Positions 5,517-49,891 of a stretch of 64,000 bases of DNA are shown here, in pieces. Source of the DNA: Myxococcota bacterium (GTDB lineage: Bacteria > Myxococcota_A > UBA9160 > JAFDDA01); contig OZ245817.1 of the NCBI GenBank assembly GCA_965228475.1, positions 2,144,001 to 2,208,000 of the forward strand. The letters are read 5' to 3'. The translations under genes and the position numbers were made by a program. The notes under the pieces were generated by a model. That model did no database searches, was not told the origin of the DNA, and saw nothing but the letters and a program-made list of their open reading frames with translations. How positions within the stretch are numbered: the first letter of the stretch is position 1; the number at the start of each line of letters is the position of its first letter.

Positions 5517-5523
5517 CACGGTG

Positions 5524-6593: not shown

Positions 6594-6643
6594 TAGATCC
6601 GCCCCTTCATCGTCCGAACCCGCGCCACTAGATCTTCCCCTTC
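6589..6643. repeat. 20-bp direct repeat duplicating a stop/start junction
   Basis: GCCACTAGATCCGCCCCTTC (6589-6608) vs GCCACTAGATCTTCCCCTTC (6624-6643), 18/20 identical. Confidence 0.75.
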
Positions 6644-7743: not shown

Positions 7744-7804
7744 GCCTGCGTCACCCCCCGCGACGCGGCGTCGTCCCCGGGCCCGGCCGTCCGCCGGGCC
7801 GCCT

Positions 7805-9853
7805 TCAGGAATCCGCCGCCTTCGCCGCCTCCGCTTCTTGAACGATCTTCTCGCGCACCTGCGCCGGCGCCTCGTCGTAGTGGGAGAACTCCATGTGGAA
7901 GGCTCCCTGACCGCCGGTGATGCTGATGAGCGAGCTCTGATACTCGAGGATCTCGGCCATCGGGACCGACGCCTTCACGACGGTGGCGTGGCCGCGCGCC
8001 TCGGTGGACTGCACGCGCCCCCGCCGGCTCGAGAGGTCGCCCATGATGTCGCCGGTGAAGGCCTCGGGCGCCGTCACCTCGAGGTTCATGATCGGTTCGA
8101 GCAGGGCCGGCCGGGCGGCTTCCATCGCCGCGCGGAAGCCCATCGAGCCGGCGAGCTTGAAGGCCATCTCGTTCGAGTCCACGGAGTGGTGCTTGCCGTC
8201 GATGCAGCGCACGCGGACGTCGACCACGGGGTAGCCCGCGAGCGGTCCGCCGGACTCCATGGCCTCCCGCACGCCCTTCTCGACGGCGGGAATGAGCGCG
8301 CGCGGGATGGCCCCACCCACGATCTCATCCGAGAATTCGAAACCGGTTCCGCGTTCCATGGGCTCCACGGTCAGGAAGCAGACGCCGAACATGCCCTTGC
8401 CGCCCGTCTGCTTCTTCAGCTTGCCTTCGACGTTCTCCGCCTTGCGCGTGATGGTCTCGCGGTACGGCACCTTCGGGGTGGAGAGCTCGACCTCGACGTC
8501 GAACAGACGCCGGAGCTTCTCCACCGTCGTCCGGATGTGGAGCTCCCCCATTCCCGTGAGGAGGAACTCCCCCGTCGAGGCTTCGCGTGCGAGACGGAGA
8601 GTCGGATCCTCTTCCACGAGTCGGCCGAGCGAGGCGTGGACTTTATCCTCGTCCCCCTTGGATTTCGCGTGGATGGCGTAGGAAAGCACGCCCTCGGGAA
8701 TGGTGATCTCGGGCAGCCGCGCGCCCCCCTTCTCGGCCGTCAGGCTGTTGCCCGTGTGGACGCCCTTGAGCTTCGCGATGGCGACGATGTCCCCGGGGCC
8801 GGCGTCGCCGGTCTCCGCGTGCTCGCTGCCCTGGACCCGCAGAAGCTTCCCGAGGCGGACCTTCTCCCCCGTCGTGGCATCGAGAACGGGGCTGTCGCCG
8901 CGGAGGGTCCCCGAGACCACCCGCACGAAGGAGAGCGAGCCGGCGTAGCGGTCGAGGGTGGTCTTGAAGACCTGGGCGGTGAGGGGGGCTTCGGCCTCGG
9001 GGGAAAGCTCCAGGAGGTCGTCGGCCTCCATGGCCTGGGCCGCGCGCGGGCCGCGATCGACGGGCGAGGGCAGGAGACCCCCGACGGCCGCGAGCAGGTC
9101 GCCCACGCCGATCTCCTTCGTGGCCGACCCGCAGAGCACGGGCAGGACCTGGCCGGCGTGGACGCCGAGGACCAGCCCACGCATGGTCTCGTCCGGCGTG
9201 AGGTCGCCTTCCTCGAGGTACTTCTCGAGCAGGTCGTCGTCGCATTCCGCCGCGGCTTCGACCATGCGCTCGTGCGCCCGCTGGGCCTCGGCTTCGAGCT
9301 CGGCCGGGACGTTCTTCATGTCGAGCAGGTTCACGACGCCCTTGAAGCCCTCGCCGCTTCCGACCGGGAGGACGACGGGGACGGGATTCACCTCCAGCCC
9401 GCGCAGGGATTCGATCGCGGTCTCGAAGTCCGCGCGGTCGGAGTCCATGCCGTTCACGAAGGCGAGGCACGCGACGTCGGCTTCGCGGGCCGCCCGGAGC
9501 ATGCGGTCGGTCCCGACCTTCACGCCGTCGACGGCGGAGACCACGAGGATCGCGCCGTCGAGCGCGGCGAGGGCGACCAGGCCGTCGGCCTGGAAGTTCG
9601 GGTCGCCGGGGGTGTCGACCAGGGTGAGGGGCCGGCCTTCGTGCTCGAAGCTGAAGACCTTGGAGGAGAGCGTGTGGCGGGTGTGGCCGTCCTTCTCCTC
9701 GGGAAGGGTGTCGAGGTGGGACGTTCCCTCGTCCACCACCCCGAGCTTCGGCGTCGCTCCGGCGGTATGGAGGATGGCCTCGCCGAGCGAGGTCTTGCCA
9801 TCGTGGGAATGCCCGATCAGGGCGAAGTTCCGGACGTCGGCGGCTCGGGTCAT
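7805..9853 (-). CDS. fusA: Elongation factor G paralogue (EF-G2-like)
   Basis: RNFALIGHSHDGKTSL, DTPG, GMGELH, PKVPYRETI, KKQTGGKG, HSVDSNEMAFKLAGS and LLEPIM. ATG at 9853 overlaps the coaX stop. Confidence 0.88.
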   Translation of the reverse strand: MTRAADVRNFALIGHSHDGKTSLGEAILHTAGATPKLGVVDEGTSHLDTLPEEKDGHTRHTLSSKVFSFEHEGRPLTLVDTPGDPNFQADGLVALAALDGAILVVSAVDGVKVGTDRMLRAAREADVACLAFVNGMDSDRADFETAIESLRGLEVNPVPVVLPVGSGEGFKGVVNLLDMKNVPAELEAEAQRAHERMVEAAAECDDDLLEKYLEEGDLTPDETMRGLVLGVHAGQVLPVLCGSATKEIGVGDLLAAVGGLLPSPVDRGPRAAQAMEADDLLELSPEAEAPLTAQVFKTTLDRYAGSLSFVRVVSGTLRGDSPVLDATTGEKVRLGKLLRVQGSEHAETGDAGPGDIVAIAKLKGVHTGNSLTAEKGGARLPEITIPEGVLSYAIHAKSKGDEDKVHASLGRLVEEDPTLRLAREASTGEFLLTGMGELHIRTTVEKLRRLFDVEVELSTPKVPYRETITRKAENVEGKLKKQTGGKGMFGVCFLTVEPMERGTGFEFSDEIVGGAIPRALIPAVEKGVREAMESGGPLAGYPVVDVRVRCIDGKHHSVDSNEMAFKLAGSMGFRAAMEAARPALLEPIMNLEVTAPEAFTGDIMGDLSSRRGRVQSTEARGHATVVKASVPMAEILEYQSSLISITGGQGAFHMEFSHYDEAPAQVREKIVQEAEAAKAADS

Positions 9854-10674
9854 GCTTCGTTCTCCTTGCGTGCCTCCCCGGGTTCGGGGCGGTTCTTCTC
9901 GAACAGGATCCGCAGGCCCTCGAGCGTGAGGAAGGGCTCCACGCGCTCGATGGTCTCGGTCTCGGTGGAAATGCGCGCCGCCAGTCCCCCCGTGGCGAGG
10001 ACGCGCATCTCGTTGCCGAGCTCTTCGCGGATGCGTTCGACCATGGCGTCCACCATGCCGGCGTACCCGAAGAGCAGGCCGGACTGGAGGGAGGCGGTGG
10101 TCGTTCGCCCGATGACGGATTTGGGCCGCGCGATCTCGACGCGGTGGAGCATGGAGGCGCGCTCGAAGAGGGCCTCCATGGAGATGTGGATCCCCGGGAA
10201 GATGGCGCCGCCGAGGTATTCGCCCTTCTCGGAGACGCAATCGAAGGTGGTGGCCGTGCCGAAATCGACGGCGACGACCGGACCGCCCATCAGCGAGAAG
10301 GCGGCGACGGAGTTCACGATGCGGTCCGCCCCGACCTCGCGGGGATTCTCGTAGCGCACCGGCATCCCGGTCTTGATGCCGGGGCCGACGACCATCGGCG
10401 CCGTGTCGAAGAGCTTCGTTCCGACGCGCTCCCAGATCGGGAGGAGCGGCGGCACGACGCTCGAGATCATCACGTTCGTGACCTCGTCGATGTCGCGCCC
10501 GGCTTGCTGGAAGAGGGCGTTCAGCGCGATCGCGACCTCGTCCGAGGTCTGCTCCCGGCGCGTGCCGATGCGCCAGTGGTGCGACAGCACGGCCTCCTCG
10601 TCGCGGTAGTCGAAGATGCCGAGCGAGACGTTGGTGTTGCCGACGTCGATGACGAGCAGGCAGGTCCGGGTCAT
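9850..10674 (-). CDS. coaX: Type III pantothenate kinase
   Basis: LLVIDVGNTN, ISSVVP, NPREVGADR, VDFGTATTFD and ATGG. Confidence 0.95.
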   Translation of the reverse strand: MTRTCLLVIDVGNTNVSLGIFDYRDEEAVLSHHWRIGTRREQTSDEVAIALNALFQQAGRDIDEVTNVMISSVVPPLLPIWERVGTKLFDTAPMVVGPGIKTGMPVRYENPREVGADRIVNSVAAFSLMGGPVVAVDFGTATTFDCVSEKGEYLGGAIFPGIHISMEALFERASMLHRVEIARPKSVIGRTTTASLQSGLLFGYAGMVDAMVERIREELGNEMRVLATGGLAARISTETETIERVEPFLTLEGLRILFEKNRPEPGEARKENEA

Positions 10675-11729
10675 GAGGCTCCACCTGGGAGCCCTGAGGC
10701 TCCCCCTGGGCTTGGCGCGGAAGCCTCGGCAGCGGGGGGCCGCGCCGAGAGCGTCACGTCGCCAGCGAGGACGCGTTCGATCCGACCGTCGGCGCGGGCC
10801 ACGAGCAGGGCGCCGTCGTGGTCGATGCCACGGGCTTCGCCGTGAAGCTCCGGGCCGTCGAGGTCGCGCACCCGGACGGACTGGCCGGCCATGGCGAAGC
10901 GCGCCTCGAAGCGCGGCCGCACGGCGTCGAAACCGCCGGCGGCGTGAAGGTCGAGCACGTCCTCGAGGCCGCCGTAGAGCGTCCGGGCAAAGGTGGCGCG
11001 GTCGACGGCGGCGCCGGAGAAGCCGCGCAGGCTCGTGGCGGTGGCGCGGAACTCCTCGGGGAACTCCGCCGGGTCCACGTTGAGGTTCACGCCGATGCCG
11101 AGCACCAGGTAGGCCACGCGGGCCGCCTCGGAAGCCATCTCCATGAGGATGCCGCAGGTCTTCTTGCCCCCGAGCAGGACGTCGTTCGGCCACTTGATGC
11201 GAACGGCCTCGTCGTCACCCACGGTGGCGGCCACGGCTTCGGCCACGGCCACGGCGGCCGAGAGCACGACGGTGGGCGCCTCGGCGATCAGCATGTCCGG
11301 GCGCAGGACGATCGAGGTGTAGAGATTCGTTCCGGCCGGGGAGTAGAAGGATCGGCCGTGGCGGCCGCGCCCGGCGCCCTGGGCTTCGGCGACGACGACG
11401 GTGCCGTGGGGCGCACCGGCGCGGGCGCGCTCGTGGGCCTCGTCGTTGGTCGAGCCGATCTCTTCGAACCAGTGGATCTCGGTTCCGAGCCAGCGGGCTT
11501 CGAGGCCCGCCTGGATCTCTTCGGCGTAGAGCCGGTCCGGCGCTCCGGCGAGCGAATAGCCGCCTCCCGGTTCGCCGCCGATCTCGTAGCCGAGCTTGCG
11601 GAGGGCCTCGACGTTCTTCCAGATCTGGTTTCGCGAGACGCCGAGGGCCTCGGAGAGGGTGGCGCCGGAGCACGGCTGCCCGCCTTCGCGGCGCAGGAGG
11701 TCGAGAACGCGCGCCGCGCCCGGATTCAT
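10671..11729 (-). CDS. birA: Bifunctional biotin ligase / biotin repressor (N-terminal HTH)
   Basis: SGATLSEALGVSRNQIWK HTH, GSTNDEA, QGAGRGRHGRSFYSP and KWPND. Confidence 0.95.
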   Translation of the reverse strand: MNPGAARVLDLLRREGGQPCSGATLSEALGVSRNQIWKNVEALRKLGYEIGGEPGGGYSLAGAPDRLYAEEIQAGLEARWLGTEIHWFEEIGSTNDEAHERARAGAPHGTVVVAEAQGAGRGRHGRSFYSPAGTNLYTSIVLRPDMLIAEAPTVVLSAAVAVAEAVAATVGDDEAVRIKWPNDVLLGGKKTCGILMEMASEAARVAYLVLGIGVNLNVDPAEFPEEFRATATSLRGFSGAAVDRATFARTLYGGLEDVLDLHAAGGFDAVRPRFEARFAMAGQSVRVRDLDGPELHGEARGIDHDGALLVARADGRIERVLAGDVTLSARPPAAEASAPSPGGASGLPGGAS

Positions 11730-15510: not shown

Positions 15511-17220
15511 CTATTCCTCTTCGCTGCCCGCCTTCATGCGCTCGATCTCTTCGCGCACGAGGGTCTCGGCCATCTTCGGGATGACCTCCCAGGCGACGGC
15601 TTCGATCTGGGCGAGGGCCTGCTTGACGACCTGCTCCGAGAGGTCGCTGAAGGCCTCCCAGGCGACCTTCTCGAGGCTCGCGTGGATCTGCTGCTGGAAC
15701 CCGGGCGGGAGTTCGGTCCCGGTGCCGTCGGAGACGGCGCTCGGGCTCGGCTCGGCCGGCGTCTCGGGCTCGTTCGTGCCGTGCGGCGGGACGTCGGCCG
15801 GCGCCTGGACGCGGAGCGGATCGGCGTCTTCGACGACCCTCGTCGTGTCCTCGCCACCCGTGGCTTCGGCCTCGGGGGCCGGGTCGGCGACGAGCTGGGT
15901 CGGCTCGACGTCGAAGCGTTCCGCCCCAGCCGGGTCGATCTGGATCGCCTCGCCGCGCTGGGCGTCGTCGAAACCTTCGCCCACGCCCATGCCCACGCCG
16001 TTGCCCACGGGCTCGGAGACGGGGACCACCTGGGTCGCATCGAGGTCCGCCCCGGCGGGCTCGGCCGTTTCGGGCTGGGCCACCGGCGGGGTTCCGCCCG
16101 CGGCGGGGCCGGCGAGATCGAAGCTCACGAGCGGGTCCGTCGCGTCGGGCGAGGGCGTCGCCGCCGGCGGCTCCGTTCCCAACGGTGCTTCCGCCGCCAT
16201 GGCGGCGTCGAGATCCTTCACGGCCGGCGCGCTCGGCGTCGCCTCGACCGCAGGGGCGGGCTCTGCGTCGACCGCGGGAGCGGGATCCGGGGTCTCGGAG
16301 GCGGGCGCAGCGTCGAGGTCGGTGACCTGGGGCGGGCTCGCCATGGAGAAGGTGAGGTCGGGCGCGGGCGGCGCCACTTCCGGGACCGTGCTGGCCATCG
16401 AAAGGTCCGCCGTCTCGATGTCGAAGCCGCTGTCGCCGCCGACGGTCAGGTCACCGCCGCCGGAAAGCTCGTCGGCGTCGTCGACGTCGTCGCCGTCGTC
16501 AGGATCGGCGAAAGAGCGTTCGCCCGGCGCGTCGAAGGCCGCCGCCTCGACGGCCGCGTCGAAGGCCGGATCCTCGGCCGTCTGGCTGCCGTCGAGCAGG
16601 ACCGTCTCGTCGGCGTGCCCCGGCGAAACGCTCGGGCCCGAGTCGCTCATCAGGTCCGCGCCGCCGAAGGGCGAGGTTTCCTCCGGAGCGCTGGCCGCGC
16701 TCGGAGCCGAAGAGGCTTCCTGGCCGTTTCCGCCGGACGCGCCGCCGGCGCCGGCGAAGAAGTCGAAGGCCGCGCCGCCCTGGTTGGCCGGCGTCTGGGC
16801 CGCGGCGGGCGGAGCGTCGATCTTCGCGGCGGCGTCGTCGCCCATCGGCGTCGACCGGGCGAGGAGCTGGTTCACCTGATCGACGAGGGCCTGGGCCTCG
16901 AAGGGCTTCGTGATGTGTCCGTCGGCACCGGCCTGGCGGGCCCGCTCGGCGTCGAAGGCTTCGAAGGTCCCCGTCAGGAGGAGCACGGGCATCTGCGCCA
17001 GGCTCGGGTCGCCCTTCAGGGCTTCGCAGACCTCGTAGCCGTTCTTCCCGGGCATCACGATGTCGGCCAGGACGATGTCCGGCCGCAGCTCCTGGGCGCG
17101 CGACACGGCATCGTCGCCGTTGTCCACCGTCACGAGCTCGATGTCCTCGTTGGCGAGACTGATCCCGACCACCTTCTGAATCGTCACACTGTCGTCCGCA
17201 AGCAGCAGGGTCTTGGGCAT
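15511..17220 (-). CDS. romR: RomR-like polarity response regulator (receiver, acidic/Pro-rich linker, RomR C-terminal helix)
   Basis: Receiver MPKTLLLADDSVTIQKVV..GTFEAFD..KPFE. C-terminal AVAWEVIPKMAETLVREEIER. Adjacent to valS, as in myxobacteria. Confidence 0.88.
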   Translation of the reverse strand: MPKTLLLADDSVTIQKVVGISLANEDIELVTVDNGDDAVSRAQELRPDIVLADIVMPGKNGYEVCEALKGDPSLAQMPVLLLTGTFEAFDAERARQAGADGHITKPFEAQALVDQVNQLLARSTPMGDDAAAKIDAPPAAAQTPANQGGAAFDFFAGAGGASGGNGQEASSAPSAASAPEETSPFGGADLMSDSGPSVSPGHADETVLLDGSQTAEDPAFDAAVEAAAFDAPGERSFADPDDGDDVDDADELSGGGDLTVGGDSGFDIETADLSMASTVPEVAPPAPDLTFSMASPPQVTDLDAAPASETPDPAPAVDAEPAPAVEATPSAPAVKDLDAAMAAEAPLGTEPPAATPSPDATDPLVSFDLAGPAAGGTPPVAQPETAEPAGADLDATQVVPVSEPVGNGVGMGVGEGFDDAQRGEAIQIDPAGAERFDVEPTQLVADPAPEAEATGGEDTTRVVEDADPLRVQAPADVPPHGTNEPETPAEPSPSAVSDGTGTELPPGFQQQIHASLEKVAWEAFSDLSEQVVKQALAQIEAVAWEVIPKMAETLVREEIERMKAGSEEE

Positions 17221-17267
17221 GGTCCCCCCCGGAAGACCGGCGTTGCCGGTGTTTGAGCCCTGTGGTC

Positions 17268-17295
17268 TCATCGACGGGGCTCGCCGGCGAATTTA
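17268..17295 (-). promoter_or_regulatory. Candidate sigma-28 promoter for romR
   Basis: Minus strand TAAA-N16-GTCGATGA. Confidence 0.5.
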
Positions 17296-17346
17296 ACGGT
17301 TTTTGCGCGCTCCTGAGCGGCTCTTGCCGGGGGCGGGCCGGCCGCG

Positions 17347-17374
17347 TCAAGTCACGCAAGTGCGCGGCCGATGG
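17347..17374 (+). promoter_or_regulatory. Candidate sigma-28 promoter for the PP2C phosphatase
   Basis: TCAA(GT)-N16-GCCGATGG, ending 18 nt before the ATG. Confidence 0.55.
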
Positions 17375-17392
17375 ACTCTTCAGGAGCTCCTC

Positions 17393-18124
17393 ATGCGTTT
17401 CGAAACCGCCGCGATTTCCGACGTAGGCCGCCGGCGACAAGCCAACGAGGACCGCTACGCCCTCGATCCGGATCTGGGGCTTTTCCTGGTGGCGGACGGC
17501 ATGGGCGGGCACCGGGCCGGCCGGACCGCGAGCGAGCTGGCGAGCGCCGCCGTCCTGGCCGCCATCCATACGCTCCAGGACGCGCCCGCGAGCCTCGCCG
17601 AGCGGCTGCGCTACGCCGTTTCCGCCGCCAATCGCGAGATCTTCTCCATGGCCGCCGAGCAGGCCGAGCTCGCCGGGATGGGAACCACCCTGGTCGTCCT
17701 GCTGGCGGGCGACGAGCGGGTCAGCCTGGCCCACGTCGGCGACAGCCGCGCCTACCTCGTGCGGGCCGGCGGGATCCGCCAGCTCACCGACGACCACAGC
17801 CTCGTGGCCGAGCTCCTGCGCCGCCAGAAGATCACCGCGGACGATGCCCGCGAGCACCCCCATCGACACGTTCTCACGCGCGCCCTCGGCGTGCGCCCGA
17901 GCGTCGAGCCGGATCTCGCCGAGATGACGCCCCTCGACGGCGACGTCTTCGTGCTCTGCTCCGACGGCCTGACGAACCACCTGCAGGACACCGAGATCGC
18001 GAAGATCGTGAGCTCGACGTCGGTGCTGGAAGATGCGGCACGTGCGTTGGTGGAGTGTGCGAATTCACGAGGTGGAGAGGACAACATCACGGTCGTCCTC
18101 GTCCGGTCCCGGTCTCAAGACTGA
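17393..18124 (+). CDS. PP2C-family Ser/Thr protein phosphatase (Stp1/PrpC-like)
   Basis: SDVGRRRQANED, VADGMGGH, MGTT, HVGDSRAY, LCSDGL and GGEDNIT. AGGAG RBS. Confidence 0.93.
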   Translation: MRFETAAISDVGRRRQANEDRYALDPDLGLFLVADGMGGHRAGRTASELASAAVLAAIHTLQDAPASLAERLRYAVSAANREIFSMAAEQAELAGMGTTLVVLLAGDERVSLAHVGDSRAYLVRAGGIRQLTDDHSLVAELLRRQKITADDAREHPHRHVLTRALGVRPSVEPDLAEMTPLDGDVFVLCSDGLTNHLQDTEIAKIVSSTSVLEDAARALVECANSRGGEDNITVVLVRSRSQD

Positions 18125-18463: not shown

Positions 18464-19228
18464 CTAGCGCTCGGCCATCGCCTTGAGCCGGCTCCGCAGT
18501 CGGAGCACGGCCTTGGTGTGGATCTGGCACACGCGGGACTCGGTGATCCCGAGGATGTTCCCGATCTCCTTCATGTTCAGATCTTCGTAGTAGTAGAGCG
18601 AGACCACGAGCCGCTCCTTTTGCGGGAGCGAGGAGATCGTGTCCGCCACCACGTGCTTCATCTCGATCAGCTTGAGCGAAGCGAAGGGGTTCTCGGCCTG
18701 GACGTCTTCGATGATGTCCGTGTATCCGCCGGTGCGTTCGCCGTCGGCGTCGCGGCTGCGGATCTCTTCCAGGTTCACGAGCGAGATGCCGCGCACCTGG
18801 TTCAGCAGTTCGTGGAACTTGTCGAGCTGGATGCCGAGGGAGTCGGCGACTTCTTCCTCGTTGGCGGCGCGGCCGAGGCGCTGCTCCATGTCCGCGTAGG
18901 CGCGCTCGATCTTGCGGCCCTTCTGGCGCACCGAGCGCGGCACCCAGTCGAGGGATCGGAGCTGGTCGAGGATCGCGCCCTTGATCCGGAACTCCGCGTA
19001 GGTCTTGAACTTGCAGTTCTTCTCGGGGTCGTATTTCTCGATCGCGTCCATCAGCCCGATCACGCCGGTGTTGTGGAGGTCGTCGAGGTCGATGTGGGAA
19101 GGGAGCCGGACGGCGATGCGGTTCACGATGTACCGGATGAGCGGCGTGTGCTCGAGGACGATGCTCTCTCGCACCTGGTTGGTGATGCCCTCGCTTTTCT
19201 CCTTGGCCTCGCGCAGCATCGTTTCCAT
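18464..19228 (-). CDS. fliA: RNA polymerase sigma-28 factor (FliA/WhiG family)
   Basis: RLPSHIDLDDL, GLMDAIEKYDP, RIKGAILDQLRSLDWVPRSVR and LYYYEDLNMKEIG..TESRVCQIH. GGAGGG before the ATG at 19228. Confidence 0.92.
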   Translation of the reverse strand: METMLREAKEKSEGITNQVRESIVLEHTPLIRYIVNRIAVRLPSHIDLDDLHNTGVIGLMDAIEKYDPEKNCKFKTYAEFRIKGAILDQLRSLDWVPRSVRQKGRKIERAYADMEQRLGRAANEEEVADSLGIQLDKFHELLNQVRGISLVNLEEIRSRDADGERTGGYTDIIEDVQAENPFASLKLIEMKHVVADTISSLPQKERLVVSLYYYEDLNMKEIGNILGITESRVCQIHTKAVLRLRSRLKAMAER

Positions 19229-19322
19229 CGTCCCCTCCATTTGAACCCCCAGAAGTTGCGCGGTGGGCCTGGCGTCCCTGCCTAGGCTTTGCCCCCGCGA
19301 TGCGCCTTGGAGCAGGGGACAA

Positions 19323-19339
19323 AGCACGGCTCATGCCAA
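19323..19339 (-). promoter_or_regulatory. Sigma-54 promoter upstream of the sigma-28 gene
   Basis: Minus strand TTGGCATGAGCCGTGCT = GG-N10-GC. Confidence 0.65.
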
Positions 19340-19593: not shown

Positions 19594-20979
19594 CTAGGGC
19601 TCGATCTCGAACTTCTTGATCTTCTCGAGCAGGGTGGTCCGGTTGAGGCCGAGGAGCTGGGCGGCCCGGTTCTTGTTCCAGCCCGTGAGTTCGAGGGCTT
19701 CGCGGATGAGCCGCGCCTGCAGGGAATCGACCACCTCGTTGAAGTTCAGGCCCTCGTGGGTGACGTGGACCTCGCCGCCGCGGGCCGTGCCCTGGCTCTC
19801 GCGGTACTCCGGGGGCAGGTCGTCGAGACCGATCTCGCCGTCGCGCCGCAGGATGACGAGGCGCTCCATCAGGTTCTCGAGCTCGCGCACGTTCCCCGGG
19901 AAGGGCTGCCGGCAGAGCACCTCGAGGGCCTCCGGCGAGATCCCCTTCACGCCGCCCCCGTTGCGCTCGCCGTGGGTCTCGATGAAGTGCGCCACCAGGG
20001 CCGGGATGTCCTCGCGCCGCTCGCGCAGGGCGGGGACGTGCACCGGAATGACGTTCAGGCGGTAGTAGAGATCCTCCCGGAAGCGCTTCTCCTGGATCAG
20101 CTCGGGCAGGTTCTGGTGGGTCGCGGCGATCACCCGGACGTCCACGGACTGGCTCTTCGAGGAGCCGACCGGCTCGAAGGTCCGCTCCTGCAGCACGCGC
20201 AGGAGCTTGACCTGGAGGTTCATCGACATGTCCCCGATCTCGTCGAGGAAGATCGTGCCGCCGTCGGCGAGGCTGAAGCGGCCCTCCCGGTGGGAGACCG
20301 CGTTGGTGAAGGCGCCGCGGACGTGGCCGAACAGCTCGCTCTCGAGCAGCTCCTCGGGGATGGCGCCGCAGTTCACCGTGATCATGGGGCGCCCGCTGCG
20401 CGGGCTGTTGTAGTGGAGGGCGCGGGCGATCAGTTCTTTGCCCGTGCCGCTCTCGCCGGTCACGAGCACCGTGCTGTCCGCGGCGCTCACGCGCTCGACC
20501 ACGTCGAGCACCTGGCGCAGGGCGTGGCTGTCGCCGACGACGTTGTCGAACTCGTAGCGGCTCTCGAGCTGCCGCTGGAGGTGCCGGTTCTCGGACTTCA
20601 GGCGGCCGTGCTCGATGGCCTGCTCGGCCAGGCGCCGGACGACGTCGAGGTGCCCCTGCTCGAAGGGCTTCTCGAGATACCAGAACGCGCCCGCGCGCAG
20701 GGCGTCGACGGAGCTCTCGGCGCTGCCGTAGCCCGTGATCACGATGCAGGGGAGGTCGGGCTGGATCTCGTGGACCTGGCGCACGAGTTCGAGGCCGTTG
20801 ATGCCCGGCATCTTGACGTCGGACAGGACGAGGTCGAGCGGCTGGGACGAGACGACCGCCATGGCCTCGCTCGCATCCCGCGCGGTCAGGACTTCGTAGC
20901 CGACCCGCTTGAGGATGCGTTCGAGGGCGCGCCGGTAGAGTTCTTCGTCGTCGACGACGAGAACGGTGACCTTGCGCAG
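19594..20979 (-). CDS. NtrC-family sigma-54 enhancer-binding response regulator, probable CTG start
   Basis: VLVVDDEE receiver, GESGTGKE, GAFTNA, RFREDLYYRLNV, PGNVREL and a Fis-type HTH. AGGAG lies 6 nt before CTG at 20979. Confidence 0.88.
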   Translation of the reverse strand: MRKVTVLVVDDEELYRRALERILKRVGYEVLTARDASEAMAVVSSQPLDLVLSDVKMPGINGLELVRQVHEIQPDLPCIVITGYGSAESSVDALRAGAFWYLEKPFEQGHLDVVRRLAEQAIEHGRLKSENRHLQRQLESRYEFDNVVGDSHALRQVLDVVERVSAADSTVLVTGESGTGKELIARALHYNSPRSGRPMITVNCGAIPEELLESELFGHVRGAFTNAVSHREGRFSLADGGTIFLDEIGDMSMNLQVKLLRVLQERTFEPVGSSKSQSVDVRVIAATHQNLPELIQEKRFREDLYYRLNVIPVHVPALRERREDIPALVAHFIETHGERNGGGVKGISPEALEVLCRQPFPGNVRELENLMERLVILRRDGEIGLDDLPPEYRESQGTARGGEVHVTHEGLNFNEVVDSLQARLIREALELTGWNKNRAAQLLGLNRTTLLEKIKKFEIEP

Positions 20980-21157: not shown

Positions 21158-22863
<1,706 letters not shown>

Positions 22864-22867
<4 letters not shown>

Positions 22868-23226
22868 AACCCGTTCTGTTGATCGTCGACGACGAGGTGC
22901 GCGTGCTCTCGGCGCTGCGCCGGGTGCTTCGCCGCGAGGGCTACGAGATCCTGCTCGCCTCGACTTCGAACGAAGCGCTGAGTCTGCTGGCCGAGCGCGA
23001 GATCGACGCCATCCTGTCGGACCACAAGATGCCGGGCATGAGCGGCATCGAGATCCTGAGCGAAGCGGCGCGCCAGCGGCCCGGAGCCGCACGGCTCCTG
23101 ATCAGCGGGTGGCCGGAGGCCGTGACCCAGGAGGAGCTCGACGCCCTCTCGATCCACGCGTTGATTCCGAAGCCCTGGCGCGACGCGGAGCTCAAGGCCG
23201 AACTCGCGCGGGCCATGGGCCGCTAG
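22864..23226 (+). CDS. Single-domain response regulator
   Basis: LLIVDDE, ILSDHKMPGMSG and KPW. GTG overlaps the kinase stop codon. Confidence 0.88.
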
Positions 23227-23232
23227 AACCGT

Positions 23233-24513
23233 TCAGTCGCGAACGACGACGCGGCTCAGGTACTCGAGGTCGGGCTTCTGGGTGTTCTTGGCGCCCACGC
23301 ACAGCACGCGGAAGCGGCGCTGGCGGCCGTGGGTGTAGTAGATGCGGCCCTTGCCCGCGAAGCCGAGTTCGAAGCACGGAAGGCCCGGCGGGAGCCCGCC
23401 GACCTTGCGCCGCACCGCCGCGTTCTCCGCTTCGTCGCAGAGCCGCTTGAGCGCCTCCTCGGCCTTGAGCTGCATGGTCTGGTCGCGCAGGCCGACGAGG
23501 TCCTGGAGCGCGCGGTCGTCCACCTCGAGATTCTTGTAGAGCGTGCGCATCCGGCGCTCGAGGAGTTCGGCCTCGCGGCCGGCCTTGCTCCCGGACTTGC
23601 CTCCCGGCGCCTTCTTCTCGGCTTTCTGCACGCGGCTGCGCAGGGAATCGATCTCGCTGTTCTTCTCGTCGAGATCGCGCAGGGACTCGTCGAGCAGCTC
23701 CTCCAGGGTATGGAGCTCGTCGTCGAGCTCGAGGCTGCGCGCGGCCTTGGCGGAGAGCTCCTCCTCACGCCGCGCGAGTCCGGCGAGCTTGTCCTGCAGC
23801 GCGCGGCGCTCGGCGCGCATCCGCCGGATCTCCTCGGCGTGGGGCGTCTCGGCCGGGTCGACGTCGTGGGCGCGCCGCCGCGCCGCTTCGAGCTCTTCTT
23901 CGATCTTGCCCGCACGGCGCGCCGCCTCCTCCCGCGCGGTCTCGGCCGAAGCGAGCAGGGCCTCCTCGTGGCGGCCGAGGGCGCGGGTGTAGAGGAAGAG
24001 CGCCCAGAGCAGGGTGGCCGCGTAGCCGAGCAGGATGCTCACCGCGAGGAGCGAGTTGTGGGGGACGGAGACGGCGACCTGGTAGCTCGCCGGCAGGATG
24101 GACGCCGCCTCGCGCGTGGCCGCCTCGGGGTCGAGGAGACCGGCCACCCCCGATGGGGCCGGGTGGATCAGCCGGCCGTCGGCGCCGTAGACGAAGACCA
24201 GCACCCGCACCCGGCCGAAGCGGATCCAGGGGCTCGTGGTGACGTCGCGGCGGATGGCGGAGCGGATCTCGTTGGCGAAGCCGGCGGTGCTCGGCTGGCT
24301 CGCGTCGACGGCGACCGCCCGCTCGACGGCCGCCTCGAAGCGCGCCTGGAGCACCCATTCGGCGGCTTCGACCGTGAAGATGTAGAGCACCGCGAAGGCG
24401 AAGATCGCGGCGTAGATCACCCGGAAGGAAGCGATCCGGTCCACGCCCCGAGCGGTGGCGGCCTCGGAGGCGCGGGGAAAGAAATTTCCCTTCTGCGGAA
24501 CGGACTTTTCCAT
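23233..24513 (-). CDS. Two-TM membrane protein with a long coiled coil and RelE/HigB-like C-terminal domain
   Basis: Two hydrophobic segments, an E/L/A-rich heptad region, and C-terminal FELGFAGKGRIYY..VLCVGAKNTQKPDL. Start uncertain (24513 or 24444). Confidence 0.65.
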   Translation of the reverse strand: MEKSVPQKGNFFPRASEAATARGVDRIASFRVIYAAIFAFAVLYIFTVEAAEWVLQARFEAAVERAVAVDASQPSTAGFANEIRSAIRRDVTTSPWIRFGRVRVLVFVYGADGRLIHPAPSGVAGLLDPEAATREAASILPASYQVAVSVPHNSLLAVSILLGYAATLLWALFLYTRALGRHEEALLASAETAREEAARRAGKIEEELEAARRRAHDVDPAETPHAEEIRRMRAERRALQDKLAGLARREEELSAKAARSLELDDELHTLEELLDESLRDLDEKNSEIDSLRSRVQKAEKKAPGGKSGSKAGREAELLERRMRTLYKNLEVDDRALQDLVGLRDQTMQLKAEEALKRLCDEAENAAVRRKVGGLPPGLPCFELGFAGKGRIYYTHGRQRRFRVLCVGAKNTQKPDLEYLSRVVVRD

Positions 24514-24605
24514 CGCGCTGCGGATCATAACGATTCCCGGGAGAGGGCGGCCCTGGGCCACTTCTGGCGGCGTCCCGGGGCATGTTTCTTGCGTCACCGG
24601 GGGCC

Positions 24606-24920
24606 ATGGAGGACACCCGGGCAAAACCCCGCACCCGCTTCGACGACTGGGTCGAGGTCGAGTGGGATGGGCACCGCGCGCGCGGCGCCGGCGTCGACCT
24701 GTCCGTCGCCGGCCTGGGGCTCGCGCTTCCCGAGGGTGGCGTTGCCCTCGGCGGCCGGGTGATCTCGGAGTTCCCGCTCCCCGGGATCGCACTCCCGGTC
24801 GAGGTGGCGGGCCGCTGGGCCTGGGTGGATCCGTCGGCCAAGCGCGCCGGGATCCGGTTCGAGTCCGTCGACCCGGGCATCGCCGACCTGCTCGCGAACT
24901 TCGTCGCGGGCCGGCTCTGA
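24606..24920 (+). CDS. Stand-alone PilZ-domain protein
   Basis: RAKPR (RxxxR) and DLSVAG (DxSxxG) c-di-GMP motifs, plus GIRF. Confidence 0.8.
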   Translation: MEDTRAKPRTRFDDWVEVEWDGHRARGAGVDLSVAGLGLALPEGGVALGGRVISEFPLPGIALPVEVAGRWAWVDPSAKRAGIRFESVDPGIADLLANFVAGRL

Positions 24921-24964: not shown

Positions 24965-25750
24965 CTACGCGGGCCCCGAGCGCGGGTGGCCCGCCAGGAC
25001 GATCACGTCCGAGAGCCGAGGAAACGCGCGGCCGAGGGCATCGAGGCCGCGCAGCAGCGCATCGGCCACCGGCTCCGGGAGCCGGTTCGAGGTGCGCGTC
25101 CAGGCCGGGAGCCCCCATCCGACGGAGATCCCCTCGACGACCTCGATCTCGATGTGGCGTTCCGCCTGCTCGCGCATGAGGTCGAGTTCGTACCGGGTGA
25201 AGTGGTCGCTCGGGACGTCGTAACCACGGCGTCCGCTGCGCACCGGCTGGCCGAGGGCCTGCTCGCGGAAGTCGTCCCAGCCGCGGGCGGCGCGGCAGGC
25301 CAGGGAGTCGAAGTTCGCGATGGCGAGCACGACGTAGCCGTCCGGCCGGACGACGCGCGCCATCTCGGAGATGGCGAGCTCCGGGCGGTCGAAGTGGTCG
25401 ATCGCGCCCTTGCACAGGGCCGCGTCGAAGCTGTCCGCGGCGAAGGGCAGCGCGTCCGCCCAGGCGCGCACCCAGGCGGGGAGCGGGCCTTCGGTCTTCG
25501 CGGCCTGGAGCTCGGCCAGCCCGATCATGCGGTGCGAGGGCTCGGCGCCGACGACGCTGGCGCCGGCCGCCTGGAGGGCGATGGCGTCCTGGCCGACGCC
25601 GCTGCCGACGTCGAGGATGCGCCGGCCCGGCCCGGGCAGGGTCTTCTCGAGCGTGGCCTCGGTCATGCGGGCGAACAGGTACTCGCTGTCCCGGGTCGTT
25701 CCGGTGGGGATCACGTCCTGCATGTCCCGGTCGAGGTCAACGACGCGCAC
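24965..25750 (-). CDS. Class I SAM-dependent methyltransferase
   Basis: ILDVGSGVG, LPFAADSFD and EMARVVRPDG. AAGGAG RBS. Confidence 0.85.
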   Translation of the reverse strand: MRVVDLDRDMQDVIPTGTTRDSEYLFARMTEATLEKTLPGPGRRILDVGSGVGQDAIALQAAGASVVGAEPSHRMIGLAELQAAKTEGPLPAWVRAWADALPFAADSFDAALCKGAIDHFDRPELAISEMARVVRPDGYVVLAIANFDSLACRAARGWDDFREQALGQPVRSGRRGYDVPSDHFTRYELDLMREQAERHIEIEVVEGISVGWGLPAWTRTSNRLPEPVADALLRGLDALGRAFPRLSDVIVLAGHPRSGPA

Positions 25751-25776
25751 GGGCTCGCTCCTTCATTCCTTGGGCG

Positions 25777-27087
25777 TCAATCGAGAGCACGGGCTCGGTT
25801 CTCCTCGACGGCTTCACGGTAGACGTCGACGGTGCGGGCCGCGATGACCGGCCACGAGAATTGCGACACGACCCGCTCGCGGGCGCGCTCGGAGAGCTCG
25901 CGGCGGGCCTCGGGCTGCTCGATCAGCGTGAGCAGCGCCTTCGCCAGGGCCCCCGGATCGCGCGGCGGCACGAGCAGGCCGCCTCCGCCCGCGCGAACCA
26001 CCTCCGGCAGGGCGCCGGCCGTACTCGCGACGACGGGCGTCCCGCAGGCCATCGCCTCGGCGGCGGGCAGGCCGAATCCCTCGAAGTTCGAGGGGACGGC
26101 GACGACGGTCGCGCGGTTGTAGAGGCGAACGAGCTCGTCGTCGGAGACGCGGCCGGTCACGTGCAGGCGATCGCCGCAGCCGAGCTTCGCGGCGCGCTTT
26201 CGCGCCCGGTGGCCCGGCGCGTCCTGATCGACCAGGGTGACCGTCACCGAGTCCGGGAGCAGGGCCAACGCATCGACCAGGGTGTCGACGCCCTTGGTCG
26301 GGTCGCCGGCGCGTCCGACGCACAGGACCTCGCCGCTCGCGCGCTCGATGCTCGGATCCGGGCGGAAGTGGTCCGTGTCGAGGCCGTTCGAGAGGTTCCG
26401 GATGCGCTCGGGGCGGACGTCGAAATCGCGCTCGATCTCCCGGGCCGAGACCTCCGAGGAGGTGATCACGCGCGCCATGCGCCGGGCCACGCAGGCCTGC
26501 ATCGCCACCGGATGGAACTTCACGGTGCCGACCGCGTCCGAGAGCGTCTTGTCGCGCTGGAAGGAGTGGCGCCGGTCGACCGAGAGCGGGTGATGGATGG
26601 TCGTCACCATCGGCATGCCGAGCCGGGCGATGCCGAGCTCGCCCCAGCCGAGGGTCTGCACGTCGTGGAGCAGGTCGAAGCGGTCGCCGGCCTTCACGCG
26701 GGCCACGAGCGCCCGCCACGCGCGCAGGCTGAATGCGAAGGGCTCGGGCAGGAAGCCGAACCAGCTCGCGCCGAGCTCGTAGAAGTTCAACGGCTCGAAC
26801 AGGCGGAGCCAGCCGCCCTCGGGCTCGAAGGCCGCGGGGTCGCGGAAGAACCACTTCCCCCAGAACTGGCCGTTCGGGAACTCGACGACGGAGCGCGCGA
26901 AGGGCATCGGGGCGGGGTGGGGCGGCCCGACGAAGACGTCGACCCGGTGGCCGAGGCGCGCGAGCTCCCGCGCCAGGTGCCAGAGGTAGATGCCCTGTCC
27001 GCCGCAGCTCATGTTGCCGCGGTAGGCGAGGAAGCCGAGGCGCAGGGGGCGCTCGGTCGCGGACGGAGCTGCGTGCAAGCCGGCCAT
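25777..27087 (-). CDS. GT4 glycosyltransferase
   Basis: YRGNMSCGGQGIY and PSNFEGFGLPAAEAMACG. Confidence 0.88.
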   Translation of the reverse strand: MAGLHAAPSATERPLRLGFLAYRGNMSCGGQGIYLWHLARELARLGHRVDVFVGPPHPAPMPFARSVVEFPNGQFWGKWFFRDPAAFEPEGGWLRLFEPLNFYELGASWFGFLPEPFAFSLRAWRALVARVKAGDRFDLLHDVQTLGWGELGIARLGMPMVTTIHHPLSVDRRHSFQRDKTLSDAVGTVKFHPVAMQACVARRMARVITSSEVSAREIERDFDVRPERIRNLSNGLDTDHFRPDPSIERASGEVLCVGRAGDPTKGVDTLVDALALLPDSVTVTLVDQDAPGHRARKRAAKLGCGDRLHVTGRVSDDELVRLYNRATVVAVPSNFEGFGLPAAEAMACGTPVVASTAGALPEVVRAGGGGLLVPPRDPGALAKALLTLIEQPEARRELSERARERVVSQFSWPVIAARTVDVYREAVEENRARALD

Positions 27088-27845
27088 CAGGCGGCGACCG
27101 CGGCCTTGCCCCGTTCGACTGTGTTCTCTCGCCCTGCGGCGGCCTGGCCTCGCTTCTGGGCATAGAGGATGACCGACTTCGGACAGATCCAGTTCAGGCC
27201 GCGTTCGACCTGGCTCATCAGCGGCGAGCCGACGACCTGGATCAGGAACTTGCGGTACGCCCGGACGAGGGCGCTCTCGTCCGCGTCGGGCAGGTGCATG
27301 GCGGAGCGCAGCACCCAGTAGGGCGTGTGAAACCCGTGGGCGAAGCCGCAACCGAGGGTGGCGAGCCCGGCGTCGGCGAGGGCCACGGCGAGGTCGCGCG
27401 GCTTGAAGATCCGGATGTGGCCGCCCGGGGATTCGAAGTACTCGTCGCCGAGGCGCAGGTAGAGGTGTTCGCTCGTGGCGGTCGGGATCGTCACCGCCAC
27501 GATGCCGTCCGGGCGCGTCACGCGCGCGAGCTCCCGCGCCGCCGCCGGGTAGTCATGGACGTGCTCCATCACCTCCGAGCAGATGACCTTGTCGAAGGTC
27601 TCGTCGCGGAAGGGCAGGCGGAAGACGTCGCCCTGCATCATCGCGGCGAGCTGGCCGAGCTCCTCGCCCCGGTTGCGCAGAGCCTTGCTGGCGGCCTTCA
27701 GGGACGGCAGGTCGAGGTCGAGGCCGACCACCCGGGCGCCGCGCTCGAGGGCGCCGAAGCAGTGGCGCCCTTCGCCGCACCCGGCGTCGAGCAGGGTCTC
27801 GCCGGGCCGGAGCCTAAGCCGCTCGAGATCGACCGTGAGCAGCAC
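27087..27845 (-). CDS. Class I SAM-dependent methyltransferase
   Basis: LLDAGCGEGRH, FDKVICSEVMEH, GGHIRIF and HTPYW. Confidence 0.88.
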   Translation of the reverse strand: MLLTVDLERLRLRPGETLLDAGCGEGRHCFGALERGARVVGLDLDLPSLKAASKALRNRGEELGQLAAMMQGDVFRLPFRDETFDKVICSEVMEHVHDYPAAARELARVTRPDGIVAVTIPTATSEHLYLRLGDEYFESPGGHIRIFKPRDLAVALADAGLATLGCGFAHGFHTPYWVLRSAMHLPDADESALVRAYRKFLIQVVGSPLMSQVERGLNWICPKSVILYAQKRGQAAAGRENTVERGKAAVAA

Positions 27846-29073
27846 GGACCGTCTCCTCGAAGATCTCGGCGAGCCCGGCCGCCGCCTGATCCCACTGGAA
27901 CAGGTGAGCCACGCGCTCCCGGGCAGCGCGGCCCATGGCGGCGGCGCGCTCGGGGTCTCCGATCACCTCCCGGATGGCGTTGGCCAGGGCCTGCGGGTCG
28001 CGCGGCGGGACGAGCCGGCCCGCGGTGCCATCCGTGCCGATCACCTCGGGCAGGGCGCCCGCGGCGTTGGCGATCACCGGAAGGCCCGCGGCCATGGCCT
28101 CGCTGGCGGGGAACCCGAAGCCCTCGAAGAAGGAGGGCACCACGGCGGCGCGTGCCGTCGAGTACTGCGCCACGAGGTCCGGCAACTCGAGCATCTCCTT
28201 GTGCAGAACGACGCGCTTCTCGAGCCCGAACTTGCGGATCAGCCGGGGCACGAGGCCGTCTTCCGGGATGCGGCCATCGACGATCTTCAGCGTGACGTCC
28301 TCGGGCAGGAGCGAGAGCGCCTCGAGCAGCGTCCCCATGCCCTTCTTGCGGTCTTCGGTCCGGCCCACGAAGAGGAGGTCCGTCTCGACCGGCGTATCCG
28401 GGACGGGCTTGAAGATGTCGAGATCCGTCCCGTTGTAGACGACGCCGATGTCCTTCTCGGGAATCCCGAAGTAGCGCTCGATCTCCCTGCGCGACGCCTC
28501 GCTCACCGTCACGATCTTGGCGAGCCGCGGCGCGACCTGCTGCTGCATGAAGAGCGGGAAGTAGAGCGTGCGCTTGATCTTCATCTTCAGGCGCGGGTCG
28601 ATCGCGAAATCCGCCTCGCGATCGATGTGCAGCGGGTGGTGGATCACCGAGACGACCGGCGTGCCGGCCGCCTGAATCCCGAGGAGGCCCCAGGCCAGGC
28701 ACTGGTTGTCGAAGACGACGTCGAAGCGGTAGCGCTGCTGGAGCTGCTTCCAGCGCATCAGGAGGCGCAGGCCGAAGGTCTGCATCTCCGGGAAGACGCC
28801 GAAGCGCGAGACGCCGAGCTCCCACAGCGTGATCGGGTTGAACAGTTCGAACGGATCGTCGCGGCGCGCGAAGTCCGGGTGCGGGACGCCGAAGACGTTC
28901 GCGTTCGGGATCTCGTGGAGCGGAATGCCGGGCTCGAGTTCCGGGAGCGGCGGGCCGGCGATCACGTGCACGTCGTGCCCGGCCTTCTTCCACTCGCGTG
29001 CCAGGTACGCGGCGTAGATGCCCTGGCCGCCGCAGTACATGTTGCCGCGATAGGTGAGGAGCGCGATCCGCAA
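27814..29073 (-). CDS. GT4 glycosyltransferase, paralogue of 25777-27087
   Basis: YRGNMYCGGQGIY and PSFFEGFGFPASEAMAAG. TTG start at 29073. Confidence 0.88.
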   Translation of the reverse strand: MRIALLTYRGNMYCGGQGIYAAYLAREWKKAGHDVHVIAGPPLPELEPGIPLHEIPNANVFGVPHPDFARRDDPFELFNPITLWELGVSRFGVFPEMQTFGLRLLMRWKQLQQRYRFDVVFDNQCLAWGLLGIQAAGTPVVSVIHHPLHIDREADFAIDPRLKMKIKRTLYFPLFMQQQVAPRLAKIVTVSEASRREIERYFGIPEKDIGVVYNGTDLDIFKPVPDTPVETDLLFVGRTEDRKKGMGTLLEALSLLPEDVTLKIVDGRIPEDGLVPRLIRKFGLEKRVVLHKEMLELPDLVAQYSTARAAVVPSFFEGFGFPASEAMAAGLPVIANAAGALPEVIGTDGTAGRLVPPRDPQALANAIREVIGDPERAAAMGRAARERVAHLFQWDQAAAGLAEIFEETVRAAHGRSRAA

Positions 29074-29084
29074 GCGCGGCGGTC

Positions 29085-29336
29085 CTAGCTGGCGGAGGAG
29101 CCGCCGGGGGCGGGCTCCGAGGGCGGGGCGTCGACGGGCGGCTCGGGCTCCACCTGGATGGTCATGATCGTCCAGCCCACCCAGAAGGCGAGGCCGAGCA
29201 CGAACAGCGTCAGCGCCGCCACGGGCAGCGCGAGCGCCCAGTAGCTCCCCGAGAAGATTCCGGAGAGGAACAGGAGGGCCAGGATCGTCACCGCAGCGCA
29301 GATGATTCCGCCCTGGGTCCGGGAGGAGTCGTTCAT
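29085..29336 (-). CDS. Small two-TM membrane protein
   Basis: GGAG RBS, two hydrophobic helices; heads the GT-MT operon. Confidence 0.65.
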   Translation of the reverse strand: MNDSSRTQGGIICAAVTILALLFLSGIFSGSYWALALPVAALTLFVLGLAFWVGWTIMTIQVEPEPPVDAPPSEPAPGGSSAS

Positions 29337-29471
29337 GCTCATCTCTCCACAACGTCGTTTGGGGAAGTTCCGAAAAAGCGAGGCCGCGCCGAGTATTCGG
29401 GCGGGCAGGGCGCCCGTCAAGGGCCGCCGAAAGTCGAGGGTCTCGCAGGGAAAGTGCCTAACATCGCGGGC

Positions 29472-48179: not shown

Positions 48180-49883
<1,704 letters not shown>

Positions 49884-49891
49884 GGCGGACC

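Follow-up and report, generated by a model that had tools for sequence, protein, structure and literature searches.

A predicted RelE/HigB-like domain at the end of a two-pass membrane protein: a core gene of an uncultured Myxococcota order with relatives in putative exopolysaccharide operons

What is a gene for that ends like a toxin gene of the RelE/HigB kind, that codes for a membrane protein, and that has no antitoxin beside it? The question is raised by the gene at 23233..24513 on the minus strand of a 64,000-nucleotide stretch of contig OZ245817.1 (assembly GCA_965228475.1, contig positions 2,144,001 to 2,208,000) from a Myxococcota bacterium. The whole of this stretch is called the window here, and coordinates are window positions unless a contig position is given. 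A sequence-only reading of the locus had described a membrane sensor-like protein ending in a RelE/HigB-like domain without an antitoxin. The gene, called the target below, has three further properties that could not be seen from the sequence alone: it is a member of a large conserved family, it forms part of the core genome of one Myxococcota order, and a sister group of it exists in Desulfobacterales. The target is a real gene. Its frame, 23233-24513 (-), is open and codes for 426 amino acids (aa), with the stop codon at 23233-23235. An alternative in-frame ATG five codons upstream, at 24528, gives a product of 431 aa, which is the database form P0002; in the alignment most relatives start at the position of 24513. 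The third-position GC content of the target is 0.87. With 7998 candidates scored, 1071 database proteins matched it at E≤0.001, and among the 120 of these 1071 matches that were listed nearly all are about 400-460 aa long, with a few shorter pieces, most of the query is covered and identity ranges from 49 to 100%; the named ones among them are mostly hypothetical proteins, a few carrying automatic names.

The C-terminal domain, residues 312-426, ends in FELGFAGKGRIYY...RVLCVGAKNTQKPDLEYL, just as had been noticed from the sequence. Folded alone with 46 relatives, it gave a model with a predicted local distance difference test score (pLDDT) of 86.6 and a predicted template modelling score of 0.79. 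After an extra helix the model runs strand, helix, helix, three strands and helix (by DSSP, in model numbering, E24-26, H28-35, H40-55, E76-80, E84-90, E96-102 and H107-120). Because the structural matches begin at about model residue 19-24, the extra helix, residues 312-325, is placed outside the fold. An exhaustive structural search against 48161 representative chains returned the RelE/ParE superfamily at all of ranks 1-24, counting the RelE domain of Cami1, with Z 5.3-9.7. The top match was Streptococcus pneumoniae HigB (Z 9.7, root-mean-square deviation 3.0 over 95 residues), and further matches were Mycobacterium tuberculosis RelE1 (Z 8.9), ribosome-bound M. tuberculosis HigB1 (Z 8.8) and the Cami1 RelE domain (Z 8.2, chain residues 263-366); YafQ, YoeB and ParE are also within ranks 1-24. 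With Foldseek, all 31 rows shown for the domain model were RelE/ParE toxins or Cami1, none of them at E≤0.001 and the best at 1.6e-3. Since values of Z 7-8 are often reached by models that have no clear match, we place the weight on the uniformity of the match list and on its agreement with the sequence. The RelE fold suggested beforehand is what both structural searches returned.

Against the NCBIfam model TIGR02683 the domain of the window's protein scored E 0.002 and 18.5 bits, for a cut-off of 62.85, and against Pfam Gp49 (PF05973) the protein scored 12.6 bits for a cut-off of 23.9. TIGR02683 was matched by 43 of 46 family members at E≤0.1, with a best value of 4e-6 and all below cut-off, and at E≤1 Gp49 was touched by 18 and ParE_toxin by 6 of the 46. 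The reference set consisted of 17 canonical TIGR02683 toxins from other Myxococcota genomes, and their consensus, ...SELRIxYGPGYRVYF...LLxGGDKxxQxxDI, upholds the killer-protein motif that had been quoted for the HigB/RelE family. In hhalign comparisons with these 17 toxins the window's group gave 80% probability (E 1.4e-5, 78 columns) and the sister group 89% (E 2.1e-6). The profile alignment pairs FEL--GF with ELRIxYG, GKGRIYY with GPGYRVYF and VGAKNTQKxDL with GGDKstQxxDI. Sequence searches of solved structures with the target protein and with the domain profile found nothing relevant; the profile of the canonical toxins matched M. tuberculosis HigB1 in the structure bank at E 1.9e-4. Judged by the modelled structure and the profile alignment, the C-terminal domain is a RelE/ParE fold and homologous to the HigB-type toxins. 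Because the score lies under the cut-off and the defining partner gene is absent, we place the protein in the RelE/ParE superfamily and not in TIGR02683 or among the toxin-antitoxin modules.

Which residues of a HigB-type toxin does this domain keep? According to the parts of the HigB1 paper drawn on here (PMC9098466), the A-site codon pocket of HigB1 consists of K58, E66, R68, N73, R77, F93, K95, Q98 and K99, of which R68, R77 and K95 are equated with RelE K54, R61 and R81; toxicity is abolished by K58A, R68A, R77A, K95A and K99A, and alanine changes at E66 and Q98 have partial or mild effects. Conservation was assessed in 119 sequences, 46 from the window's group and 73 from the sister group. 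Eleven residues, R321, Y326, E352, R369, K370, E382, R390, Y392, G407, K409 and Q412, are invariant in all 119. Among them, E382, R390, K409 and Q412 align to E49, R59, K78 and Q81, which are invariant in the canonical toxins. In the alignment E382 is the E of ELR and falls on HigB1 E66, R390 is the R of GYRVY and falls on HigB1 R77, and R369/K370 lie near the position of HigB1 K58. K409 and Q412 correspond to the K and Q in the beta4-alpha3 loop, which in HigB1 carries K95, Q98 and K99, the mapping of this loop between the families being ambiguous. The loss of the ELR arginine, pointed out earlier as a change to ELG, extends to the whole family: 44 of the 46 sequences from the window's group have G at position 384, and most of those from the sister group have V, L, I, E or A there. 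The median pI is 9.4 for the C-terminal domain and 10.1 for the canonical toxins, so both are basic. By this alignment the predicted mRNA pocket is largely retained under strong constraint, minus one residue that is important in known toxins.

The rest of the protein was laid out from a full-length AlphaFold model built on 30 relatives (mean pLDDT 80.4) and from hydropathy, and both the two membrane helices flanking an extracytoplasmic region and the long coiled coil behind them, as proposed from the sequence, reappear in it. All parts are encoded on the minus strand. An N-terminal tail, residues 1-27 (24433..24513), poorly conserved, of low model confidence and presumably cytoplasmic, leads into the first membrane helix, residues ~28-53 (24355..24432), where 19-residue Kyte-Doolittle windows centred on 35-46 peak within the modelled helix 13-67. 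Between the membrane helices lies a small helix/strand domain of about 100 aa, residues ~54-154 (24052..24354), probably periplasmic, of which residues ~68-150 form the folded mixed helix/strand part in the AlphaFold model. The second membrane helix, residues ~155-177 (23983..24051), has its hydropathy peak at window centres 163-167 within the modelled helix 155-217. It continues into a helical stalk of about 120 aa, residues 178-296 (23626..23982), which would be cytoplasmic and is read as a coiled coil; in the model helices 155-217 and 220-296 make up a near-continuous helix 155-296. Then follow a flexible Gly/Ser/Lys linker, residues 297-311 (23581..23625), which varies in length and sequence with gaps in the alignment and has pLDDT <50 for residues 294-311, the conserved extra helix 312-325 (23539..23580), in which R321 is invariant as is the next residue, Y326, and the predicted RelE/ParE-fold domain of HigB (TIGR02683) type, residues 326-426 (23236..23538). 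Conservation is highest in the C-terminal domain, the fraction of the majority residue being 0.81 there, 0.57 in the outside domain and 0.42 in the linker. We infer that both ends of the protein are cytoplasmic, mainly because ribosome-directed folds act in the cytoplasm; the flanking charges favour this weakly.

No known fold was recognised for the outside domain in a protein-atlas search with residues 25-180, which gave no usable match, and Foldseek with the full-length model gave RelE/ParE rows and none for the outside domain. Pfam and NCBIfam scans of the whole protein revealed neither a CARF domain nor another sensor family. The whole-protein matches in these scans (UPF0242, GAS, SMC, Rad50 and others) are below their cut-offs and were set aside as coiled-coil noise, and so were the weak matches in a defence-system library (DruC 9e-5, LmuB), which touch the stalk region and nothing else.

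Is the target half of a toxin-antitoxin module? Its stop codon is 6 nt from the stop of a convergent receiver gene and its start is 68 nt from the start of a PilZ gene, and no antitoxin-sized frame adjoins it on either side, so the claim that it has no adjacent antitoxin stands. A search of the genome with TIGR02684, the HigA-type antitoxin model, found no cognate antitoxin (best 19.1 bits, under the cut-off of 53.7), and a genome search for canonical TIGR02683 toxins found none, the target itself being the sole match. Of 121 genomes from the window's order, 102 carry the gene by the domain profile, as do 67 of the 78 high-quality genomes among the 121, and the carriers almost all have a single copy. 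In a sample of the phylum the profile detected it in 39 of another 47 genomes from the order and in 0 of 253 from elsewhere in the phylum. It is surrounded in the window by genes for valyl-tRNA synthetase, NadC, AnmK, CoaBC, RibF, LptF/G and the type IV pilus, and plasmid and phage collections gave no match to it. The target is a core gene of one uncultured Myxococcota order. Because there is no room for an antitoxin, no cognate in the genome, a mostly single-copy core gene and core-genome synteny, we do not regard it as a toxin-antitoxin module, nor as a mobile element. Short relatives of 63-219 aa were searched for with the domain profile and 174 matches were obtained. As stand-alone relatives these were rejected, the 120 of the 174 that were listed being 58-82% identical and mostly on short contigs, and they are read as pieces of the same family. 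Six short forms of 93-211 aa (P0125, P0129, P0176, P0202, P0204 and P0232) lie on long contigs of 157-302 kb and may be miscalled starts, frameshifts or real truncations.

The family extends beyond the order. When 1.84 billion cluster representatives were scanned in full with the domain profile, 242 clusters (50% identity) reached E≤0.001, and the 31 with E≤1e-30 make up the window's group. Below these, at about 1e-18 to 1e-29, comes a further set that consists mostly of proteins of 360-420 residues with the domain at the extreme C-terminus, and the rest are shorter entries. The sister proteins have the layout membrane helix, outside domain, membrane helix and stalk, followed by KRKVFG...FEVxFAYxGRLYF...IGTKNTQxKDL. 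The window's protein aligns to all 80 sister loci fetched, mostly near full length, with 23-36% identity and E 1e-18 to 1e-40, and the outside domain is homologous between the two groups. Named members of the sister group come from Desulfosalsimonas propionicica, a cultured carrier with the protein WP_181551043.1, and from Desulfobacterales bins, and the named members of the family span two phyla; the annotations are mostly hypothetical protein, with a few automatic entries as 'nucleic acid-binding Zn-ribbon protein'.

For the neighbours of the sister genes, frames were called in the 80 loci and the neighbours clustered, 4 loci being dropped because no target frame was called in them. A gene for a TPR protein of about 760 aa, a PrsT-like lipoprotein, lies on the same strand directly upstream in 44 of the 55 loci with an upstream neighbour and one gene further in 7 more. 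In loci L172 and L173 a gene for a hybrid kinase/receiver, and not the TPR gene, is directly upstream on the same strand. Directly downstream on the same strand is a gene for an ExeA-like (PEP-CTERM-type) ATPase in 23 of 68 loci, a small receiver holds the +1 position in 9 of the 68, and genes for a chain-length determinant, a tyrosine kinase and PilZ come next in several. All of these neighbours have an XrtA/PEP-CTERM system model as their best-scoring family, each a little short of its curated cut-off, with 300 bits for a cut-off of 312 for PrsT, 258 for 324.5 for the system ATPase, 265 for 279 for the chain-length determinant and 203 for 231 for the tyrosine kinase. The sister group thus sits in putative exopolysaccharide operons of an XrtA/PEP-CTERM-like kind in Desulfobacterales. 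In the available parts of Haft 2006 (PMC1569441) PrsK, PrsR and PrsT are defined as regulators and no protein like the target is mentioned. Glycosyltransferase genes lie next to the target in the window's own genome, which also encodes an XrtA-like exosortase (156 bits, cut-off 208), a PEP-CTERM-type ATPase and a chain-length determinant 30-37 kb to the left of the target, at approximately contig 2128460-2137329, outside the window. Another PEP-CTERM-type ATPase is encoded about 57 kb to the right, at contig ~2224807-2225601, likewise outside the window. Across the whole genome the ATPase model has five matches at E≤1e-37 and there are two exosortase-like ones, all under the curated cut-offs.

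Comparison of the neighbourhoods of homologues, which had been put forward together with the sequence-only reading, disclosed a conserved receiver/kinase/sigma-54 synteny in the window's group in addition to the operons of the sister group. The 80 related loci compared are metagenome bins, mostly labelled Myxococcota or Deltaproteobacteria with some carrying other labels, and across them synteny is kept at about 50% protein identity. The receiver and a methyltransferase gene are found in 75 of them each, the sigma-54 activator and the kinase in 73 each, a second methyltransferase in 71, two glycosyltransferases in 64 each and PilZ in only 19. A stand-alone response-regulator receiver of about 120 aa (22864..23226, +; Pfam Response_reg E 7.9e-20) is the last gene after a histidine kinase (21158..22867, +), and it is downstream of and convergent with the target in 71 of the 80 loci, with a median gap of 42 nt and a gap of ≤107 nt in 64 of the 71. 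Beyond the kinase is a sigma-54-dependent NtrC-type activator (19594..20862, -; NtrC 430 bits, PrsR 370 bits under the cut-off of 502.6), the true start of which is probably further upstream. On the other side is the PilZ-domain gene (24582..24920, +), which is divergent from the target as described earlier and exceeds its Pfam cut-off of 22.5 with 36.5 bits (E 6.7e-9). Upstream of the target there follow, at 24965..29352 (-), two genes for methyltransferases and two for family-4 glycosyltransferases, with counterparts in 64-75 of the 80 loci. The methyltransferase gene at 24965-25750 is on the target's strand here and in the related locus L001 and on the opposite strand in most other loci, which points to an inversion of this single gene in this lineage.

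A palindrome, GGAAAGAAATTTCC (GGAA-N6-TTCC), is present at 24476-24489, inside codons 9-13 of the target and about 95 nt upstream of the PilZ start. It was considered as an activator site and dropped, the window having 2 such sites for 0.6 expected and 13 of 100 shuffles reaching 2, which is not significant; no match to a sigma-54 -24/-12 promoter was found near it. Elsewhere in the window are a type IV pilus block at 48180-55412 (PilB-like ATPase, PilC-like platform protein, PilS-like kinase and PilR-like sigma-54 activator), signalling genes at 3090-5528 and 15514-18121 (a GAF-GGDEF protein, and a receiver-domain protein next to a PP2C phosphatase) and a sigma-70 family factor at 18467-19327. 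The frames 5544-6665 and 6631-7743 (-) have good codon bias and no Pfam match at 1e-10, and in the ~4 kb of 7743-11729 no frame passes the codon-bias filter.

What, then, could this protein do? The reading that we favour, as a real possibility that falls somewhat short of probable, is that it is a membrane-tethered, gated effector acting on the ribosome or on mRNA and tied to the biogenesis of envelope polysaccharide. It would be a two-pass inner-membrane protein with the small periplasmic domain outside and the stalk, the flexible linker and the RelE/HigB-like domain inside, and the stalk would pair two chains. On its leash of about 15 residues and a helix of about 120 residues the RelE-like domain could reach ribosomes near the membrane, and there it may cut, or at least block, A-site mRNA. 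Restraint would come from the tethering, from the pairing of the stalks or from the conserved helix 312-325, in place of an antitoxin. The RelE-like domain would be freed when the outside domain senses a signal from the envelope or from the export of polysaccharide, a task in which the TPR lipoprotein, the receiver protein or the PilZ protein encoded nearby might share. By this means the assembly of the envelope or of exopolysaccharide would feed back on the translation of membrane and secreted proteins.

Several observations weigh against this proposal. Cleavage, ribosome binding and gating are predictions from sequence and models. The arginine of ELR has no counterpart, since position 384 is never K or R in the 119 sequences, and its HigB1 equivalent R68 (= RelE K54) is required for toxicity in the part of the HigB1 work consulted (PMC9098466); N36 of the canonical GNxGD loop is lost too, the loop being replaced. 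A protein-binding face would also predict invariant surface residues. The disordered linker speaks against rigid transmission of a signal along the stalk, and the assignment of inside and outside rests on a weak charge bias. The Foldseek E-values are modest even at their best (1.6e-3), Z 7-8 is common for unmatched models, and the family-model scores are all under the curated cut-offs (18.5 for 62.85 with TIGR02683, 12.6 for 23.9 with Gp49). As for the link with exopolysaccharide, the neighbours of the sister group fall just under the cut-offs of the PEP-CTERM models, and in the window's genome the target is outside any exosortase operon.

The loss of the ELR arginine in 119 of 119 sequences and the status of an antitoxin-less core gene would also suit a retired nuclease fold that has been kept as a protein-binding module in a cytoplasmic complex for exopolysaccharide assembly or regulation, with no activity towards ribosomes or RNA. 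Its partner could be the ExeA-like ATPase, which shares the operon in 23 of 68 sister loci, the stand-alone receiver, which is a direct neighbour in 71 of the 80 loci from the window's group and has a small counterpart at +1 in 9 of 68 sister loci, or a transcription factor. A parallel exists in M. tuberculosis HigB2 and HigB3, which are non-toxic and lack the pocket residues, as described in the sections of PMC9098466 that we used. However, the residues that are invariant here are those that line the mRNA pocket of HigB-type toxins, a toxin-like basic charge is kept (pI 9.4 compared with 10.1), and the partners are candidates only, so that we consider a retired fold doubtful, though a serious contender. 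Between the two stands a domain that binds ribosomes or RNA without cutting and serves as a membrane anchor or a brake, for example by placing or pausing the translation of envelope proteins. The RelE fold, the basic surface and a conserved pocket with one catalytic-type arginine lost agree with this, the stalk and the flexible leash suit a reach to membrane-near ribosomes, and inactive HigB variants still reduced translation at high dose (PMC9098466, in the part available). Binding alone would not need E382, R390 and K409 all to be invariant, however, and we think this explanation rather improbable. The gene could lastly be that of a classical toxin or of an anti-phage effector, with the antitoxin or immunity partner either encoded at another locus or built into the same chain. 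The homology to toxins of toxin-antitoxin modules is in its favour, RelE defence effectors fused to a sensor or to a membrane segment are known or proposed (Cami1, from PDB titles; ToxM, from the portion of PMC11980606 at hand), and the conserved helix 312-325 could serve as a built-in inhibitor. Against such a role are the core-genome synteny, with the gene in 102 of the 121 genomes of the order and mostly in single copy, the housekeeping surroundings, the lack of a cognate antitoxin in the genome, a defence-system library that gives coiled-coil noise only, plasmid and phage collections without a match, and a C-terminal domain that is the most conserved part of the protein and not a variable one. 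Of the explanations considered here we regard this one as very unlikely.

How does the proposed tethered effector compare with known systems? HigB-type toxins are, so far as is known, each paired with a HigA-type antitoxin and have a patchy distribution. Their fold is common with that of the target domain in the model (Z 8.8 for the nearest solved relative, M. tuberculosis HigB1, PDB 7nbu), the E of ELR, the R and Y of GYRVY and the K, Q and D of GGDKstQxxDI align, and the basic charge is alike. The canonical TIGR02683 toxins collected here are single domains of 95-120 aa, whereas the target domain makes up the last quarter of a membrane protein of 426 aa, is without the arginine of ELR and the GNxGD loop, and has a 5-residue insert (GLPPx) and the extra N-terminal helix; it also has no antitoxin and is a lineage-wide core gene. 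Cami1, the CARF-RelE ribonuclease of type III CRISPR systems, resembles the target in that its RelE domain is fused to a sensor part. The sensor of Cami1 is a soluble CARF domain that binds cyclic tetra-adenylate, and to our knowledge Cami1 works without a separate antitoxin. In place of CARF the target carries a membrane anchor, an outside domain and a stalk, and no CRISPR context was seen. The Cami1 structures are PDB 8phb and 8phj, and a PDB entry title reads 'cA4-bound Cami1 in complex with 70S ribosome'; by analogy Cami1 offers a precedent for a signal-gated RelE.

A membrane-associated RelE/ParE toxin, ToxM, with an antitoxin, ToxR, is proposed by Gerdes 2025 (PMC11980606). From the parts of that paper and its supplement used here, ToxM is like the target in having a RelE/ParE-fold domain, predicted to be cytoplasmic, joined to a membrane-spanning segment. 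ToxM has an N-terminal fold, one central membrane segment, an outside C-terminal domain and a co-transcribed upstream ribbon-helix-helix or helix-turn-helix antitoxin, ToxR, whereas the target has the reverse domain order, two membrane helices, a long stalk and no upstream antitoxin. Many multidomain proteins without an identifiable antitoxin were left out of Gerdes 2025, and the motifs RRKVGGLP, GAKNTQK and GAKNSQK were not found in the searched parts of three of its supplementary files (PMC11980606). We found no description of the target's architecture in the literature.

RNase Y and IRE1 invite an analogy as membrane-anchored endoribonucleases. RNase Y has an N-terminal anchor, a helical region and a nuclease, and IRE1 senses across the membrane and cuts membrane-associated mRNAs. 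Their folds and catalysis are unrelated to those of the target and no homology is claimed. Carried to its full extent, the tethered-effector proposal would make the protein an envelope sensor with its own leashed A-site nuclease, a counterpart of IRE1 and RNase Y in logic and not in ancestry. Polysaccharide or PEP-CTERM export that has stalled or started would act through the outside domain, perhaps with the TPR lipoprotein, to free the RelE-like domain, mRNA would be cut on membrane-bound ribosomes, tethering and self-inhibition would replace the antitoxin, and a domesticated toxin fold would serve as a housekeeping regulator in two phyla. In this complete form we consider the proposal speculative and unlikely to hold in every part.

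The domains of RelE/HigB type have so far been seen as toxins held by antitoxins, as a sensor-fused effector in Cami1 and, as proposed, as a membrane form with an antitoxin in ToxM. The family described here departs from these, being a conserved, chromosomal and antitoxin-less one in which the predicted toxin fold is borne on the stalk of a two-pass membrane protein, and its genes are found together with those for exopolysaccharide and PEP-CTERM functions and for the regulation of these. Should the domain be inactive, the family would clearly illustrate how a toxin fold can be turned to use in binding. If it is active, a toxin fold would have been turned into a signal-gated regulator of translation at the membrane, and a post-transcriptional layer would be added to the control of the biofilm matrix. 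The family may represent a new kind of envelope-linked regulator.

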